Virus genome (UHGV): UHGV-1746005
Length of the DNA: 20,218 nucleotides
Strand: one strand, 5' to 3'
Source of the DNA: a virus
Shown: positions 9,412 through 16,773 of the stretch, piece by piece
Layout: each line of letters starts with the position of its first letter
Position numbering within the stretch: position 1 is the stretch's first letter
Notes under the pieces: model-generated
What the model was told of the DNA's origin: nothing
Databases searched by the model: none
Seen by the model: only the letters and a program-made list of their open reading frames with translations
Made by a program: the position numbers and the translations under genes

Positions 9412-10019
<608 letters not shown>

Positions 10020-10132
10020 TAGTCATTTGTTCATTGAGTAGGAATATTGTTGTCCGGGGGGTAATCAGTGTAGGTGGAATGAGGGATATGATATGGTTAT
10101 CACATAATCAGGTTGTTTTGAGTAAAACAATA

Positions 10133-10159
10133 AAACGCCCTTTAATGGGCGTTTTTTTA
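10133..10159 (-). terminator. Rho-independent terminator (potentially bidirectional) downstream of the secreted-protein operon
   Basis: AAAACGCCC-TTTAAT-GGGCGTTTT followed by a T-run on the plus strand (TTTTTTT) and a U-rich tract on the minus strand; lies 28 nt beyond the stop at 10187. Confidence 0.6.
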
Positions 10160-10186
10160 AACTTAAATTGACTATCCTTTCAAATA

Positions 10187-10966
10187 CTATTTTAATTCTA
10201 TGTAATTTTTAAATTCTCCCTCATATTTATACATGATGCTATCAAATCCTTCCATTACATCAACGAATTGTTGTGAACATTCCGGCTTCCAAGGCGTACA
10301 CTTACGAACCATATCCATTTTTTTCTTATCCTTCGTTGTATCGACTAAGGATAGGTACCCTATAAAATTCATCATCTGAACAGGATCTTGATTTGTGAAT
10401 ATATATTTGACGTTTTGCTTAGTAGGCGAAAAAGAATCAAAAGCAGGGAACATATATTCACCAGAAAAAGAGAGTGCAGCATCAATGACGTCTGTTGCAG
10501 GAGTGCAGTTGCTCAGAATTGGCACTAAGCTAAAATTAGCACCGGAGCACACTGCATATATATCATCCCCTTTTTTTAGTTTTAACAGAGAGTCTTGCTT
10601 TGAATCCAATATTTTCAATTTGATATAATTTAGTGGCGTTGCATTTTCCCCTGGAGTAAATAATTCTACAATTGGTTTATTATTCACCATTCTTATGGAT
10701 TTTATTTCACCATACACAATTGGAATTGTGTTCCATTTTTCCTGAGCAGCAAATTCATTATCTTTAAAATCATTAACCAACTCAGATGGCAAATGATAAC
10801 CAAATTGATTGTTCATTGCTTTCGAAGCAAATCCAGACAAATAGAATGCCCTTACTAAATCATAATCTTTCTTTGAGGTAGAAAGCCAATCTGGCAATTT
10901 ATTATCAGCTATCGCGCTTCCAGCAAAAATAGCACAACAAAATGTTATTACATTAAATAATTTCAT
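10187..10966 (-). CDS. Exported (periplasmic) protein, ~259-aa precursor with Sec signal peptide; unknown function; superinfection-exclusion (Sim-like) candidate by position
   Basis: Strongly AT-rich gene. Likely start is the ATG at 10964-10966 giving MKLFNVITFCCAIFAGSAIA|DNK (n-h-c regions, AxA cleavage motif); the track ORF begins upstream at a GTG. Six or more Cys in the mature part. The upstream gene's stop (10974) overlaps the start region. Confidence 0.6.
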   Translation of the reverse strand: MKLFNVITFCCAIFAGSAIADNKLPDWLSTSKKDYDLVRAFYLSGFASKAMNNQFGYHLPSELVNDFKDNEFAAQEKWNTIPIVYGEIKSIRMVNNKPIVELFTPGENATPLNYIKLKILDSKQDSLLKLKKGDDIYAVCSGANFSLVPILSNCTPATDVIDAALSFSGEYMFPAFDSFSPTKQNVKYIFTNQDPVQMMNFIGYLSLVDTTKDKKKMDMVRKCTPWKPECSQQFVDVMEGFDSIMYKYEGEFKNYIELK

Positions 10967-10973
10967 TTTCCAT

Positions 10974-11291
10974 TCACTCATTAATCGGTTTAAACTCACT
11001 AATTAATTCACCAAGACTATTTGGGTATGCTTTATAAATAACATACTCCGAAGAGCCATCTGAATATTGGTAAACCCCATAACAGACCAGTTTATTTATT
11101 CCTTTCTGAATAGTTTTTTGATTATAAGAATCAACCACTGTTATTCCATATGACGATAATATTTCGTTATATTCTTCAATAAGAGCTTTTCTTGTTTCCA
11201 CTGAATTGCAATCTACCTTCGAAAAGTCAACTTCATCAGCAAAAACATTAAATGTTAAAAAGGAAAGCACTAAAAACAAACGAATCAGCAT
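10974..11291 (-). CDS. Small exported protein, ~105 aa with signal peptide; unknown function
   Basis: Likely start at ATG 11289-11291 (SD AGGAG 7-11 nt upstream) giving MLIRLFLVLSFLTFNVFA|DEV; AT-rich; same operon as the 259-aa gene. Confidence 0.55.
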   Translation of the reverse strand: MLIRLFLVLSFLTFNVFADEVDFSKVDCNSVETRKALIEEYNEILSSYGITVVDSYNQKTIQKGINKLVCYGVYQYSDGSSEYVIYKAYPNSLGELISEFKPINE

Positions 11292-11312
11292 AAATCCACT
11301 CCTACGCATGGA

Positions 11313-11444
11313 TTAATAGTCATTGATCGCAAAGGCGTAAACGTGCCCAAGGTATTTCGTATAATCGGTACAAATCTCCTTTACGCTTGATGCTGCATTA
11401 ACAGTCCCAGCCATAAATAATAACGGTAGTAATAGTTTTCTCAT
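11313..11444 (-). CDS. Short ORF (43 aa) with signal-peptide-like N-terminus, first gene of the secreted-protein operon
   Basis: Not in the ORF track (below size cut-off); ATG at 11442-11444 with SD AGGTGAGG; MRKLLLPLLFMAGTVNA|ASS...; stop TAA lies 19 nt before the next start. Confidence 0.4.
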   Translation of the reverse strand: MRKLLLPLLFMAGTVNAASSVKEICTDYTKYLGHVYAFAINDY

Positions 11445-11540
11445 TATAACCTCACCTGCCTTATAACTCATTTAGGGTACATATTTTCGCCTTTAAAAAA
11501 AAGAGGTTATTAGATCCAACTGTGTATTTATTAAACAAAT

Positions 11541-11557
11541 AATGCTCTAATAAATTT
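11541..11557 (+). promoter_or_regulatory. C1-repressor-operator-like 17-mer (AATGCTCTAATAAATTT) upstream of the immunity-operon promoter
   Basis: 16/17 match to the P1 C1 operator consensus ATTGCTCTAATAAATTT (recalled from the literature); a second near-identical copy is at 13212-13228, with similarity extending ~20 bp further (TTTT(T/C)TAAGT...GAAT). Confidence 0.6.
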
Positions 11558-11595
11558 GTATTTTTAAGTCGCGAATGCTATCTTTTCGCATCATA

Positions 11596-11624
11596 TTGAC
11601 CTTTTAATCGTTCAGGCTTATAGT
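11596..11624 (+). promoter_or_regulatory. Sigma70-type promoter for the leader/icd/ant transcript (-35 TTGACC, 17-bp spacer, -10 TATAGT)
   Basis: -35 at 11596-11601 and -10 at 11619-11624 with optimal spacing; ~40 bp downstream of the operator-like 17-mer and ~240 bp upstream of the Icd-like start. Confidence 0.45.
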
Positions 11625-11699
11625 TCCACCGTCGTAGCAAATTCTGCGACCGGGTTTGACAGCCTGAATGTTAGTGCGGACAACCGCAGATTTCCGATA

Positions 11700-11815
11700 T
11701 TGCGGTATTTTTGTGTCCGTAAACCGCGTTACGCCCGAATTATGGTGGGGCGTGATGGGGAGGCTTCGGCCTGCTGGTTTCACTAACGCCAGTCTGTCAA
11801 CCCTGTCACGTCCTG
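11700..11815 (+). ncRNA. Candidate c4/CI-type antisense regulatory RNA within the leader (boundaries approximate)
   Basis: Structured GC-rich leader: hairpin ACGCCC...GGGCGT (11731-11753), UUCG-tetraloop hairpin AGGC-TTCG-GCCT (11761-11772), and tandem CTGTCA elements (11794-11799, 11803-11808) complementary to TTGACAG copies at 11655-11661 and 11823-11829. Confidence 0.3.
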
Positions 11816-11870
11816 CCACCTGTTTGACAGCGGGTAGCAGGTTGTTAAACCTGTTAGTGAGGCCGTAACT

Positions 11871-13211: not shown

Positions 13212-13228
13212 TTTGCTCTAATAAATTT
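13212..13228 (+). promoter_or_regulatory. C1-operator-like 17-mer (TTTGCTCTAATAAATTT) upstream of the kilA-like gene
   Basis: 16/17 match to the recalled consensus; ~70 bp upstream of ATG 13298; equivalent in position to the operator controlling kilA-repL in P1. Confidence 0.6.
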
Positions 13229-14976: not shown

Positions 14977-14993
14977 ATTGCTCTAATTATAAC
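14977..14993 (+). promoter_or_regulatory. Degenerate C1-operator-like half-match (ATTGCTCTAATTATAAC)
   Basis: First 11 nt match the recalled consensus and the remainder diverges; lies between the repL-like stop and the AT-rich operon. Confidence 0.25.
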
Positions 14994-15141
14994 CATGCAT
15001 ACTTTCAACACCTCTAGTTTGCCATGAGGAAAACTCATAGGCGTCCTGGTAAGATGACGTAGTTAGCAAATCAGAACGTCCAATTATTGCAATTAATAAA
15101 CAACTAACGGACAATTCTACCTAACAATAAGTGGAGTTAAC

Positions 15142-15846
15142 ATGTTGAACCGAAGAACATTTAATGTATTCTGCGATGAATCCTGTCACCTACTAAATGA
15201 TCATAATAAAGTCATGGTATTGGGTGCGCTTTGGTGTCCTGGCACTATCACAAAAAAAATTGCTAGAGACATCAAGGGATTAAAATTAAAACACAATTTA
15301 AAACCTGATTTCGAAATCAAGTGGACTAAAGTATCTGCGTCCAAAGTTGAATTTTACTTAGAGGTCGTAGATTACTTCTTCAGCAACCCAGCATTGCGCT
15401 TTAGAGGTGTTGTTGTTCCTGATAAAGAGCAACTGGACCATGCTCGATTCCATCAAGATCATAATACTTTCTATTATAAGATGTTTTTTTATGTCTTAAA
15501 AAACATAATAGAAAGTAACAACACATACAATATCTACCTAGATATAAAAGATACTTTAGGTATTGAAAAAATTGAGAAATTAAGAGGAGTTCTTCACAAT
15601 GATCGCTATGATTACAATCATGAGTCGATAAACAGAATTCAACATATACGATCTCATGAAGTGCAACAATTGCAGCTAACGGATCTTTTCATTGGTGCGT
15701 TAGGCTACGTTCATCGAGGAATGAATAGCAACGCGGGAAAAATCCAAGTCATAAACAGGATAAAATCACATACAAACAGGGAGTTACTAAAAAGCACTCT
15801 TCCAACAGAAAGTAAATTTAATATTTTCGTGTGGGAGGCTCGCTGA
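15142..15846 (+). CDS. Hypothetical protein (234 aa), DUF3800-like by N-terminal motif; first gene of an AT-rich two-gene operon
   Basis: ATG with SD GGAG 6 nt upstream; AT-rich by hand count (about 25-35% GC); N-terminal FNVFCDESCH resembles the x-DES-G start I recall for DUF3800 proteins (unverified); the TGA stop overlaps the next ATG. Confidence 0.6.
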   Translation: MLNRRTFNVFCDESCHLLNDHNKVMVLGALWCPGTITKKIARDIKGLKLKHNLKPDFEIKWTKVSASKVEFYLEVVDYFFSNPALRFRGVVVPDKEQLDHARFHQDHNTFYYKMFFYVLKNIIESNNTYNIYLDIKDTLGIEKIEKLRGVLHNDRYDYNHESINRIQHIRSHEVQQLQLTDLFIGALGYVHRGMNSNAGKIQVINRIKSHTNRELLKSTLPTESKFNIFVWEAR

Positions 15847-16310
15847 TGCTTCAAATGCCAGATTTATTGTACTTCAATGGAAGTTGGCAAGAGTATATAG
15901 ACGATGTATATGATGTTGTTAGAGAAGATATTTTAATCTCTAATATAACGTTTAAGGGTCTCCCTGTTCGATTACGTTATTCACCGGAATATGATGGGAA
16001 AGAGTTCGGATTTTGGCATTTAGTATCAGAGGGAAAAATAGAAGAAGAACGAATACCTGATCTTGAACGGTGTAAGCGGATCCGCTGGATCGCGCATATG
16101 ATAAGGAATTATGACCATTGCGATATATCATGTTGGTCTGAAAGACGAGGACCAACTGAAGAGTGGGTAATCTGGAACGAGTGTGAAAACTACGTTGTTG
16201 TGCTATCCGCACGTAGAGACTATTGGCTTCTCAAAACAGCCTATGTTGTAACCTATGACAGTAAAATCAGAACACTCAAACAAAGCAGAAAAAGAGCACT
16301 TGGGACATAA
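15846..16310 (+). CDS. Hypothetical protein (154 aa), translationally coupled partner of the DUF3800-like gene
   Basis: ATG at 15846-15848 overlaps the upstream stop (TGATG); strong SD GGGAGG at 15833-15838; contains R-x5-H (RIRWIAH) and RNYDH motifs; the track ORF starts at an upstream GTG. Confidence 0.55.
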   Translation: MLQMPDLLYFNGSWQEYIDDVYDVVREDILISNITFKGLPVRLRYSPEYDGKEFGFWHLVSEGKIEEERIPDLERCKRIRWIAHMIRNYDHCDISCWSERRGPTEEWVIWNECENYVVVLSARRDYWLLKTAYVVTYDSKIRTLKQSRKRALGT

Positions 16311-16318
16311 AAAAGCTG

Positions 16319-16348
16319 AACCCGACACATATTGCTATGTATCGGGTT
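16319..16348 (+). terminator. Probable terminator hairpin after the two-gene operon
   Basis: AACCCGACACA-TATTGC-TGTATCGGGTT (imperfect 10-bp stem) beginning 9 nt after the stop; the downstream U-tract is interrupted. Confidence 0.4.
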
Positions 16349-16476
16349 CGATCGCTCTTTCTACGCATGGTAGATGAGTAAGGTAAATCTAACCGATCTA
16401 CTTTAGCTTTTCAATAGCTAGCTATAACTTTCCGCACATATTCTTCTGATAATTCCAGTATGGCGGTTGGGTTTTC

Positions 16477-16773
16477 TTATGCTTTCCTGCGCAGAGGCGC
16501 ACACTTATTCAGCAATAATAAATGTAATTCTTTGTTATCCCTAAGTATTTCGACACACCAATATCGTAACGTGTTCACTTCAAGTGTAGCCAGCACCTTA
16601 TGTCGAAGTCCTCCCTCCCCTGCACATAACGATGGCCGACATTCTGCTAAGGCACATAACCATGTATTGGCATCATAGAGAATCCAATAATGCTCCTCTG
16701 AAATAGTTTTGCATCCAATTATTTCGAATCTTCGTTCTATCGTTTCAGGAGAGTATGAAAAATCAATTTCCAT
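16477..16773 (-). CDS. Orphan hypothetical ORF (98 aa), convergent with the two-gene operon
   Basis: Only the ORF itself; no convincing SD or promoter; Cys/Trp-containing, moderately protein-like composition. Confidence 0.25.
   Translation of the reverse strand: MEIDFSYSPETIERRFEIIGCKTISEEHYWILYDANTWLCALAECRPSLCAGEGGLRHKVLATLEVNTLRYWCVEILRDNKELHLLLLNKCAPLRRKA

Follow-up and report, generated by a model that had tools for sequence, protein, structure and literature searches.

The module downstream of repL

The window, that is, the whole 20,218-nucleotide (nt) stretch of virus genome UHGV-1746005, carries downstream of repL two coupled genes that are the rlfA and rlfB of phage P1 (rapA and rapB in P7) and, convergent with them, an unannotated gene for a small structured RNA. 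The module has three parts, not two: rlfA, rlfB and the small RNA. It is self-contained and horizontally mobile, comprising the candidate defence system PDC-M04 of PADLOC plus an RNA that PADLOC does not model, and its function most likely lies in conflict or defence, of a toxin-antitoxin (TA) or abortive-infection kind. Two things seem to be new here: the small RNA as an obligate part, including its structure, strand and promoter, and the orphan copies of this RNA in phages; the pair and its candidate-defence status were already known. The features of the module in the window are as follows.

15142..15846, plus strand: rlfA (rapA in P7), 234-amino-acid (aa) DUF3800 protein, modelled with an RNase H2-like fold
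15846..16310, plus strand: rlfB (rapB in P7), 154-aa obligate partner, modelled as alpha+beta, no Pfam family
16309..16379, minus strand: small RNA gene, about 70 nt, unannotated, convergent with rlfB; 5'-A-CUCAUCUACCAUGCGUAGAAAGAG-CGAUC-(terminator hairpin)-AGCUUUUUU-3'
16355..16378, minus strand: 5' hairpin of the RNA, in which P0 (CUC/GAG) encloses P1 (UCUAC/GUAGA) with a conserved CAUGY loop; RNAalifold
16318..16349, minus strand: P2, the intrinsic terminator hairpin of the RNA; free energy −19.8 kcal/mol, z = −5.2 against shuffles, 7/7 counted pairs covarying
16386..16414, minus strand: predicted promoter of the small RNA, TTGAAA (16414-16409), 17-nt spacer, TAGATT (16391-16386); predicted start about 16379

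An earlier, sequence-only reading of this DNA had described a two-gene operon. Both open reading frames (ORFs) and their lengths were recovered when the coordinates were recomputed, with the second gene starting at ATG 15846 (an alternative GTG at 15831 would give 159 aa), and so was the TGATG (15844-15848) shared by the stop codon of the first gene and the start codon of the second, a 1-nt overlap; the two genes are translationally coupled. The Shine–Dalgarno (SD) sequences claimed before each gene were also found, as the SD-like GTGGAG (15131-15136) and GGGAGG (15833-15838). The computed GC content is 35.0% for rlfA and 39.1% for rlfB (34% and 33% at third codon positions), against 45.3% for repL, 49.9% for kilA, 48.2% for bplB and 45.8% on average over the window, and no more than 6.8% of sliding windows of equal size are as AT-rich; the dip relative to the 45-50% flanks is real, although milder than the 25-35% of the earlier hand count. 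The same reading had raised rlfA-rlfB as a possible identity, which the DNA identity of the region firmly establishes (96.9% to P1 rlfA-rlfB, 98.1% to P7 rapA-rapB and 99.9% to phage-plasmid JL22).

The convergent small RNA

About 68 nt past the rlfB stop codon are ~93% identical among P1, a Citrobacter chromosome, a P4-like satellite and Biostraticola, where the proteins are 64-75% identical, and the similarity beyond rlfB breaks off abruptly at window position 16379. Iterated nhmmer searches found the element in 121 places, in essentially every locus with the pair, and always abutting the stop codon of rlfB; in the window, the U-tract of the RNA overlaps this codon. The consensus of an 86-sequence alignment is 5'-AG-CUCAUCUACCAUGUGUAGAAGGAG-UAACG-(variable hairpin)-GCUUUU, and RNAalifold resolves it into a CUC/GAG closing stem, a 5-bp stem capped by a conserved CAUGU loop and the terminator hairpin, with compensatory changes in 12 of 15 pairs. 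Pairs 8:21, 9:20 and 10:19 show 13, 25 and 2 double changes plus 25 G–U pairs, and this helix is 98.4% paired. Over the whole alignment the share of paired cells is 94.5%, compared with 79.6% for shuffles (0/500 reach the observed value) and 46-50% for slid partners, and 184 double-change cells were observed where 49 were expected. Since G–U pairs are frequent (25 at 10:19, 51 at 40:60) and would become A–C mismatches on the opposite strand, and since a U-run follows the hairpin on the minus strand only, the RNA is transcribed convergently to rlfB and the hairpin is a minus-strand terminator. Thus, the hairpin that the sequence-only reading saw after the pair does exist, but it is not a part of the two-gene unit alone: it terminates the minus-strand RNA gene and belongs to a conserved third component, so that the description as a two-gene operon, right as to the coupled pair, was incomplete.

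A covariance model found one copy of the RNA in each of the 87 loci that hold the pair and have room downstream (E 1e-6 to 3e-19), the window copy scoring 58.3 bits (E 1.7e-13); it found none in five P1-like loci without rlfAB, none where the pair is deleted and no further copy in 1.1 Mb. There is no locus with an intact rlfB that lacks the RNA, and two P1-like contigs with a truncated rlfB (L113 and L114) have lost the RNA and kept rlfA. Two truncated-gene cases, P0104 and P0023, are uninformative on TA polarity, one being a deletion that carries CNF1-like cargo and the other an assembly with a frameshift. The sequence upstream of the RNA 5' end is not conserved, but the position of the sigma-70 promoter is, with TTG at −37 to −35, TAnnnT at −14 to −9 and A or G at the predicted start; at least 8 of 12 promoter positions match in 88 of 103 distinct loci. 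In three viral loci the RNA is inverted relative to rlfB, and it is therefore an independent gene rather than a structure of the 3' untranslated region.

Nothing is annotated between rlfB and pmgF in the P1 and P7 records; in P1 (NC_005856), the RNA corresponds to about 52976 to 52906. Searches of Rfam 15, which includes DUF3800-I (RF02969), DUF3800-IX (RF02968), drum and skipping-rope, gave no relevant match at E ≤ 10 for the window region or at E ≤ 1 for 12 other loci of the RNA; this comparison covers Rfam families, and the RNA may be identical to a DUF3800 motif that was never entered in Rfam. Two other readings of the element were rejected. Antisense regulation in the manner of type I TA systems does not agree with the duplex energies between the RNA and the translation starts of rlfA and rlfB, which are no better than those of shuffled RNA (−15.6 against −16.6 and −14.8 against −15.0 kcal/mol), nor with the three loci in which the RNA is inverted. 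A small peptide, considered by eye, was discarded because all three codon positions are invariant and the stem changes are compensatory, as in an RNA structure.

The two proteins

RlfA matches the Pfam family DUF3800 (PF12686) over residues 8-189 with 53.1 bits (cut-off 21, E 7.6e-14), and the FNVFCDESCH in which the sequence-only reading recognized a DUF3800-like start is a genuine N-terminal motif of this family. The invariant residues of RlfA include D12, E13, S14, C15 and H16, E58, K60 and W61, D134, K136 and D137, Q167 and S171, and D181; in a 40-sequence alignment D12/E13 are invariant and Q178-x-x-D181 is conserved, with Q178 near-invariant (at least 90%). RlfA thus has both of the motifs reported for DUF3800 proteins, an N-terminal DE and a C-terminal QxxD (PMC7736814). 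The structure model gives an RNase H2-like fold, in agreement with published predictions for DUF3800 (PMC7736814, PMC10910872), and, judged by the secondary-structure elements next to them, D12/E13 at the end of beta1, D134 after beta4 and D181 in the helix after beta5 may lie where this fold would be expected to place its DEDD carboxylates. A profile search against PDB sequences returned no RNase H and no sequence-level link to solved structures, and hhalign with E. coli RnhB gave a probability of 0.14; RlfA is therefore described by its RNase H2-like fold, without being placed in the RNase H2 family. NCBIfam yielded zero matches for RlfA and RlfB. RlfA is a predicted DUF3800 nuclease with conserved acidic residues.

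At 50% identity, the RlfB family falls into 1,778 clusters, which consist throughout of stand-alone proteins of ~150-190 aa. An alignment of diverse members shows H58 and W97 as invariant and F56, W57, R69, R75, R78 and W81 as at least 90% conserved, giving the signature F56-W57-H58...R69...R75...R78...W81...W97. The RlfB model (pLDDT 91) has an alpha+beta architecture whose C-terminal sheet is made of four strands. Among 72 family members, no Pfam match was obtained except one to DUF4258 at E 0.042, and a profile search of the PDB was negative. The RIRWIAH (R-x5-H) of RlfB, which had been likened to HEPN-type RNase motifs, does not bear that assignment out: R78 shows a conservation of at least 90%, but position 84 is variable (H, W, F, A and others), the invariant histidine is H58 and the modelled fold is alpha+beta, not all-alpha. 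A relation to the RelE/ParE–colicin D group (BECR fold) is a weak lead, with Foldseek results on the PDB that are not significant. The names "replication protein" (RefSeq for P1 and P7, PHROG 16230) and "oxidoreductase" (many NCBI records) given to RlfB are unsupported by any analysis performed here.

Linkage and genomic neighbourhood

The pair is obligate. In all 80 genome loci, which come from many phyla, RlfA is followed directly by an RlfB homolog, usually with an overlap, and RlfA lies directly upstream of RlfB in all 31 viral loci that were chosen through RlfB, which makes 111 of 111. At one viral locus (L126, 5695-6555) a single ORF matches the hidden Markov models (HMMs) of both proteins and may be a fusion or a frameshift artefact. 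The PADLOC models PDC-M04A and PDC-M04B match RlfA (E 2.2e-95) and RlfB (E 3.5e-51), whose genes are adjacent and co-oriented; no experimental test of PDC-M04 or rlfAB was found in the literature searched.

The module is widespread and lives in defence neighbourhoods. Type I restriction-modification (R-M) genes occur within the available flank of 41 of the 80 loci, and 12 of the 45 loci whose flanks are complete have the pair between hsdM/S and hsdR; among 121 immediate neighbours (31 loci), the commonest are the methylase, specificity and restriction subunits of type I systems. The gene order is hsdR-MazE-PIN-A-B-hsdM-hsdS in an Anaerolineales genome, hsdMS-reverse transcriptase (RT)-A-B-hsdR followed by pAgo in Algoriphagus, and RhuM-A-B-SymE in Citrobacter, with one case of the latter inside a P4-like satellite. 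The label of candidate defence system, already proposed from the sequence alone, is consistent with these contexts and with the PDC-M04 matches of both proteins. An assignment to retrons, prompted by the RT beside the pair in Algoriphagus, was rejected, since an RT is sporadic and lies near only 2 of ~111 loci.

Two further observations concern the surroundings of the pair. In Citrobacter (L002/L003/L005 and L004, 7988-9016), a Virulence_RhuM gene stands directly upstream of it and a SymE toxin gene downstream; the RhuM-domain candidate PDC-S05 has been reported to protect against T7, T5 and T4 (PMC12881386). At L041 (1-54), the 3' end of a tmRNA gene forms the border of a locus with the pair and the RNA, which suggests that the module there is part of an island inserted at ssrA.

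Position after repL and the replication label

Between repL and rlfA, the window keeps two regulatory elements annotated in P1.

14977..14993, plus strand: operator of the C1 repressor (P1 Op55/Orlf; P7 Op(rap)), ATTGCTCTAATTATAAC, 4 nt past the repL stop codon; annotated in P1 and P7, window sequence identical
15087..15115, plus strand: PrlfA, a weak predicted sigma-70 promoter, TTGCAA-17-GACAAT, 8/12; predicted in the P1 annotation, sequence kept in the window

The operator was not recovered by a consensus scan, its 3' half being too diverged, and PrlfA was not called in our own promoter scan, in which its 8/12 falls below the threshold of 9/12. A conserved leader or promoter upstream of rlfA did not emerge across contexts, where the alignment is only patchily similar around the SD.

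This position underlies the proposal that the genes serve lytic replication from oriL, with RlfA, for example, processing the transcript or R-loop by which the origin inside repL is activated. In favour of this, the genes follow repL immediately and stand behind an operator under C1 control, RNA sequencing (RNA-seq) of P1vir places them with the early lytic genes, the modelled fold of RlfA is RNase H2-like, and both PHROGs and RefSeq name RlfB a replication protein. The label is positional, however, the wording of the P1 record being "possibly associated with lytic replication". A genome-wide CRISPR interference (CRISPRi) screen found rlfA and rlfB non-essential for P1 plaque formation and lytic growth (PMC10695390), and the P1 segment matched to the lytic replicons of PAC vectors stops at 51736, before rlfA begins at 51740 (P1 record). 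Moreover, many P1-like phages have repL but not rlfAB, and the pair occurs widely where there is no repL; repL played no part in the choice of any of the 80 genome loci, and the nearest neighbours of the pair are mostly R-M and TA genes. The pair is therefore neither required for repL/oriL nor co-inherited with them, and a role in lytic replication is very improbable.

The region rlfA-rlfB-pmgF is one of eight low-GC variable regions among P1-like elements (PMC9603915, PMC6906374). In the same slot, RCS47 carries an IS605-family element and an unknown ORF, Ro157c2YLVW, phi456 and MH422554 carry small ORFs and the hok-like MokW, and 673R5 carries an unrelated ORF; in an E. coli P1-like element (L129, 5760-8426), rlfA is shortened to 141 aa, and a large CNF1/ToxA_N-like toxin gene, encoded on the opposite strand, stands in place of rlfB and the RNA. 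The sequence-only reading was right in seeing low-GC cargo in a variable slot, and rlfAB is firmly optional and horizontally acquired cargo of P1-family phage-plasmids rather than an accessory of lytic replication. Of 5,426 complete E. coli genomes, 121 contain the module, and 123 of its 128 places are on plasmids.

Such a distribution would suit an RNA-antitoxin TA-like cassette that acts purely in addiction, stabilizing P1 plasmids, satellites and islands by post-segregational killing with no meaningful anti-phage activity. The E. coli copies are almost only on low-copy P1-like plasmids, a hok/mok-like gene fills the same slot in other P1-like phages, TA genes are frequent neighbours and the pair is translationally coupled. 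Nevertheless, the embedding of the module in type I R-M operons and defence islands, as well as the RNA copies in transfer RNA (tRNA) arrays of lytic-type phages described below, points to conflict with phages, and P1 already carries phd-doc, a conserved P1 gene set (PMC9603915); addiction as the sole function is unlikely.

Several other observations were made around this slot and upstream of it. The gene pmgF (16477-16773, minus strand) is gained and lost together with rlfAB in P1-like elements and converges on the same terminator as the small RNA, P2 being also placed to terminate pmgF transcription; since conservation stops at 16379, pmgF does not travel with the module in other genomes. 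Two near-consensus C1 operators, with one mismatch each, lie at 11541-11557 and 13212-13228 (plus strand), where a mean of 0.09 is expected by chance, and the second is placed like the kilA/repL operator Op53. Another AT-rich island, more pronounced (GC 0.31-0.34), lies at about 10000-11600, just upstream of the C4/immI region, and is probably the variable sim (superimmunity) region, which is also low in GC in PMC9603915. Rfam matches to the C4 antisense RNA of the P1 immunity region (68.8 bits; 11738-11823, plus strand) and to the a1/b1 target element (57 bits; 11618-11670, plus strand) are as expected for a P1-like immI.

RNA without proteins in phages

When IMG/VR was scanned for exact occurrences of the 24-nt core of the RNA, 116 loci were obtained, 27 of which have rlfB adjacent, whereas 66 have room on both sides and neither protein. 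The covariance model recovered the full structured RNA in all 66 of these protein-less viral loci. The fixed promoter is absent from the orphan copies, while the AG before CUCAUC is kept. Their neighbours are ordinary phage genes, such as those for a DnaB-like helicase, a Sak4-like annealase, an exonuclease, integrases, the large terminase and an anti-repressor, and clustering of the flanking ORFs revealed no common protein partner, the largest cluster, found in 20 of 66 loci, being a protein of ~370 aa whose recurrence reflects kinship among the phages. The orphan RNA lies inside or abuts a co-oriented tRNA array in about 20 of the 46 loci that were scanned.

Cultured phages with an unannotated core include Bacillus subtilis SPbeta, phi3T and relatives, as well as the Vibrio phages 1.084.O and 1.121.O. 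In SPbeta the RNA is present twice, in tandem, within an unannotated stretch of 1.7 kb that separates yonN from yonK-yonJ, downstream of the RNA polymerase gene yonO; an exonuclease like YonJ follows the RNA in SPbeta-like loci. In the related viral contigs L155, L161, L185 and L239, too, a second CTCATGTACCATG element stands right behind the first.

L247 3002-3126 (SPBc2 NC_001884, about 59530-59654), reverse strand: tandem small RNAs of SPbeta

Phage tRNA arrays can compensate for tRNA-targeting defences. The presence of the RNA in such arrays could thus mean that the module and the orphan RNAs act in counter-defence, neutralizing an RNA-targeting defence of the host, for example by supplying or repairing the attacked RNA, and the carriers do include phage P1 and a P4-like satellite, with an expression that looks early-lytic. 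However, most copies of the module are chromosomal, in R-M operons and defence islands of many phyla rather than in phages, and the RNA is not a housekeeping molecule, being seen in bacterial loci only beside rlfAB; such a function seems improbable.

The RNA could instead be a guide, scaffold or activator of the RNase H/Piwi-like RlfA, within a ribonucleoprotein that would recognize a conserved nucleic-acid target, in which case the phage orphans might be decoys titrating the proteins, or the molecules that the system senses. DUF3800 domains are found repeatedly together with structured RNAs, retron RTs and Cas12a2/a3, the linkage of RNA and proteins is 1:1 throughout, and the 5' half of the RNA is near-invariant across phyla, as expected for contact with conserved proteins or with a target. 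This near-invariance, on the other hand, does not allow guidance to diverse phages; no conserved complementary target was identified, the translation starts of the module itself not being complementary, and tandem copies of an activator or guide in phages are harder to explain than those of an antidote. We consider an RNA-dependent nuclease of this kind rather unlikely.

Proposed function

The reading that we prefer, with a probability of about one half, is a TA-like defence module in which the RNA restrains an RlfA-RlfB nuclease and the copies in phages are antidotes. The RNA, made constitutively, would bind the putative nuclease and hold it inactive; infection would remove or outcompete the RNA, for example by transcription shut-off or RNA decay, and the freed nuclease would attack RNA or RNA–DNA hybrids, so that the infection is aborted. 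The same mechanism could stabilize the P1 plasmid or a genomic island, and phages with the RNA alone, in tRNA arrays or as the tandem copies of SPbeta, would supply the antidote.

That the RNA restrains the proteins is suggested by its presence with every intact rlfB and by the two contigs with a truncated rlfB that lost the RNA and kept rlfA, and its lack of complementarity to the translation starts argues for protein binding as opposed to antisense action. An antitoxin is also suggested by the RNA-antitoxin system, hok-like, that the P1 slot holds elsewhere, and an antidote by the fact that the RNA alone in phages behaves like orphan antitoxins. ToxI mimics in phages are a precedent for orphan antitoxins made of RNA. 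Orphan antitoxins in phages have a further precedent in PMC11825919.

Several points weigh against this proposal. No phenotype was found in the literature searched and PDC-M04 is a computational candidate; results for other PDC candidates were mixed, and some of these failed when tested (PMC12409345). The C1 operator between repL and rlfA, the weakness of PrlfA and the early-lytic pattern in P1vir RNA-seq imply that the proteins may be made mainly in lytic growth, which would be unusual for a prophage defence. The toxicity and nuclease activity of RlfA and RlfB are putative, the inhibitory role of the RNA is drawn from distribution patterns, and a role of the RNA as cofactor, guide or trigger fits the linkage equally well. 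Moreover, the exact-pattern scan for orphans favours the most conserved core, and diverged protein partners near the orphans could escape subfamily HMMs. A broader formulation, which we put forward as tentative, is that of a new kind of RNA-gated immune or toxin module, in which an RNase H-fold DUF3800 complex would be either restrained or programmed by a dedicated RNA of ~70 nt, conserved from Proteobacteria to Chloroflexota, and which phages of several host groups would counter by carrying the RNA.

Few phages are used as much in genetics as P1, yet its rlfA and rlfB bear a positional "replication" label that has spread to RefSeq and PHROGs. The genes are re-filed here as a mobile conflict module of hundreds of species, with an unannotated RNA as its obligate third part, and the RNA family merits curation whatever the mechanism, having 86 distinct module-linked sequences, covariation in 12 of 15 pairs and a conserved promoter. 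If the RNA does restrain an RNase H-fold nuclease, this would be a new architecture among RNA-antitoxin and abortive-infection systems and would provide a function for DUF3800-associated RNAs and for long-unexplained genes of P1, as well as the first functional handle on the DUF3800 proteins that travel with structured RNAs. The RNA-only copies in tRNA arrays, SPbeta, phi3T and the Vibrio phages would then be a new class of anti-defence RNA and a widespread RNA-based form of counter-defence that had gone unrecognized. Both the role of rlfAB and the association of DUF3800 with RNA are directly testable in E. coli with P1 and in B. subtilis with SPbeta.

Comparison with known systems

The genes, their place and the C1 operator are the same as in P1 rlfA-rlfB and P7 rapA-rapB (annotation of Lobocka et al. 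2004; NC_005856, AF503408), and the records of these phages differ from the present description in their lytic-replication label and in the absence of the small RNA gene. PDC-M04 of PADLOC resembles the module in both protein models, in the adjacency of the genes and in their occurrence in defence islands, but it has two proteins and no RNA. PrrC is an anticodon nuclease embedded in type I R-M systems, and the placement of rlfAB between hsdM/S and hsdR is likened to it, which suggests a second line of defence coupled to restriction; the likeness is one of gene placement, as there is no relation in sequence or fold and the P1 copy is not beside an R-M operon.

ToxIN is a type III TA and abortive-infection system with pseudo-antitoxin RNAs that are reported to be carried by phages (Fineran 2009, Blower 2012). 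The likeness lies in a nuclease, here predicted, that is genetically tied to a small structured RNA, and in phages that carry the RNA alone, in tandem in SPbeta; as in ToxIN-like systems, the RNA gene obligatorily adjoins the protein genes, with one copy per locus of the pair. However, ToxIN has tandem RNA repeats upstream, on the same strand and before a terminator, whereas the RNA described here is single, downstream and convergent, with its own promoter. The module also has two proteins, with a modelled RNase H-like fold instead of the ToxN/Kid-like one, and their toxicity and RNA binding are predictions.

The DUF3800-I to -XI motifs (Weinberg et al. 2017, PMC5737381) share with the RNA a structure tied to a DUF3800 gene, an occurrence on either strand, an intrinsic terminator and a function that is unknown; neither an RlfB partner nor orphan copies in phages are described in the portion of that paper compared here. 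Finally, type VII retrons (Mestre et al. 2020, PMC7736814) are likewise predicted defence systems, in which a DUF3800 protein of RNase H2-like fold has a non-coding nucleic acid as its partner. They differ from rlfAB in having an RT, which lies near only the 2 of ~111 loci mentioned above, and RlfA keeps the QxxD motif that is reported missing in the type VII proteins.

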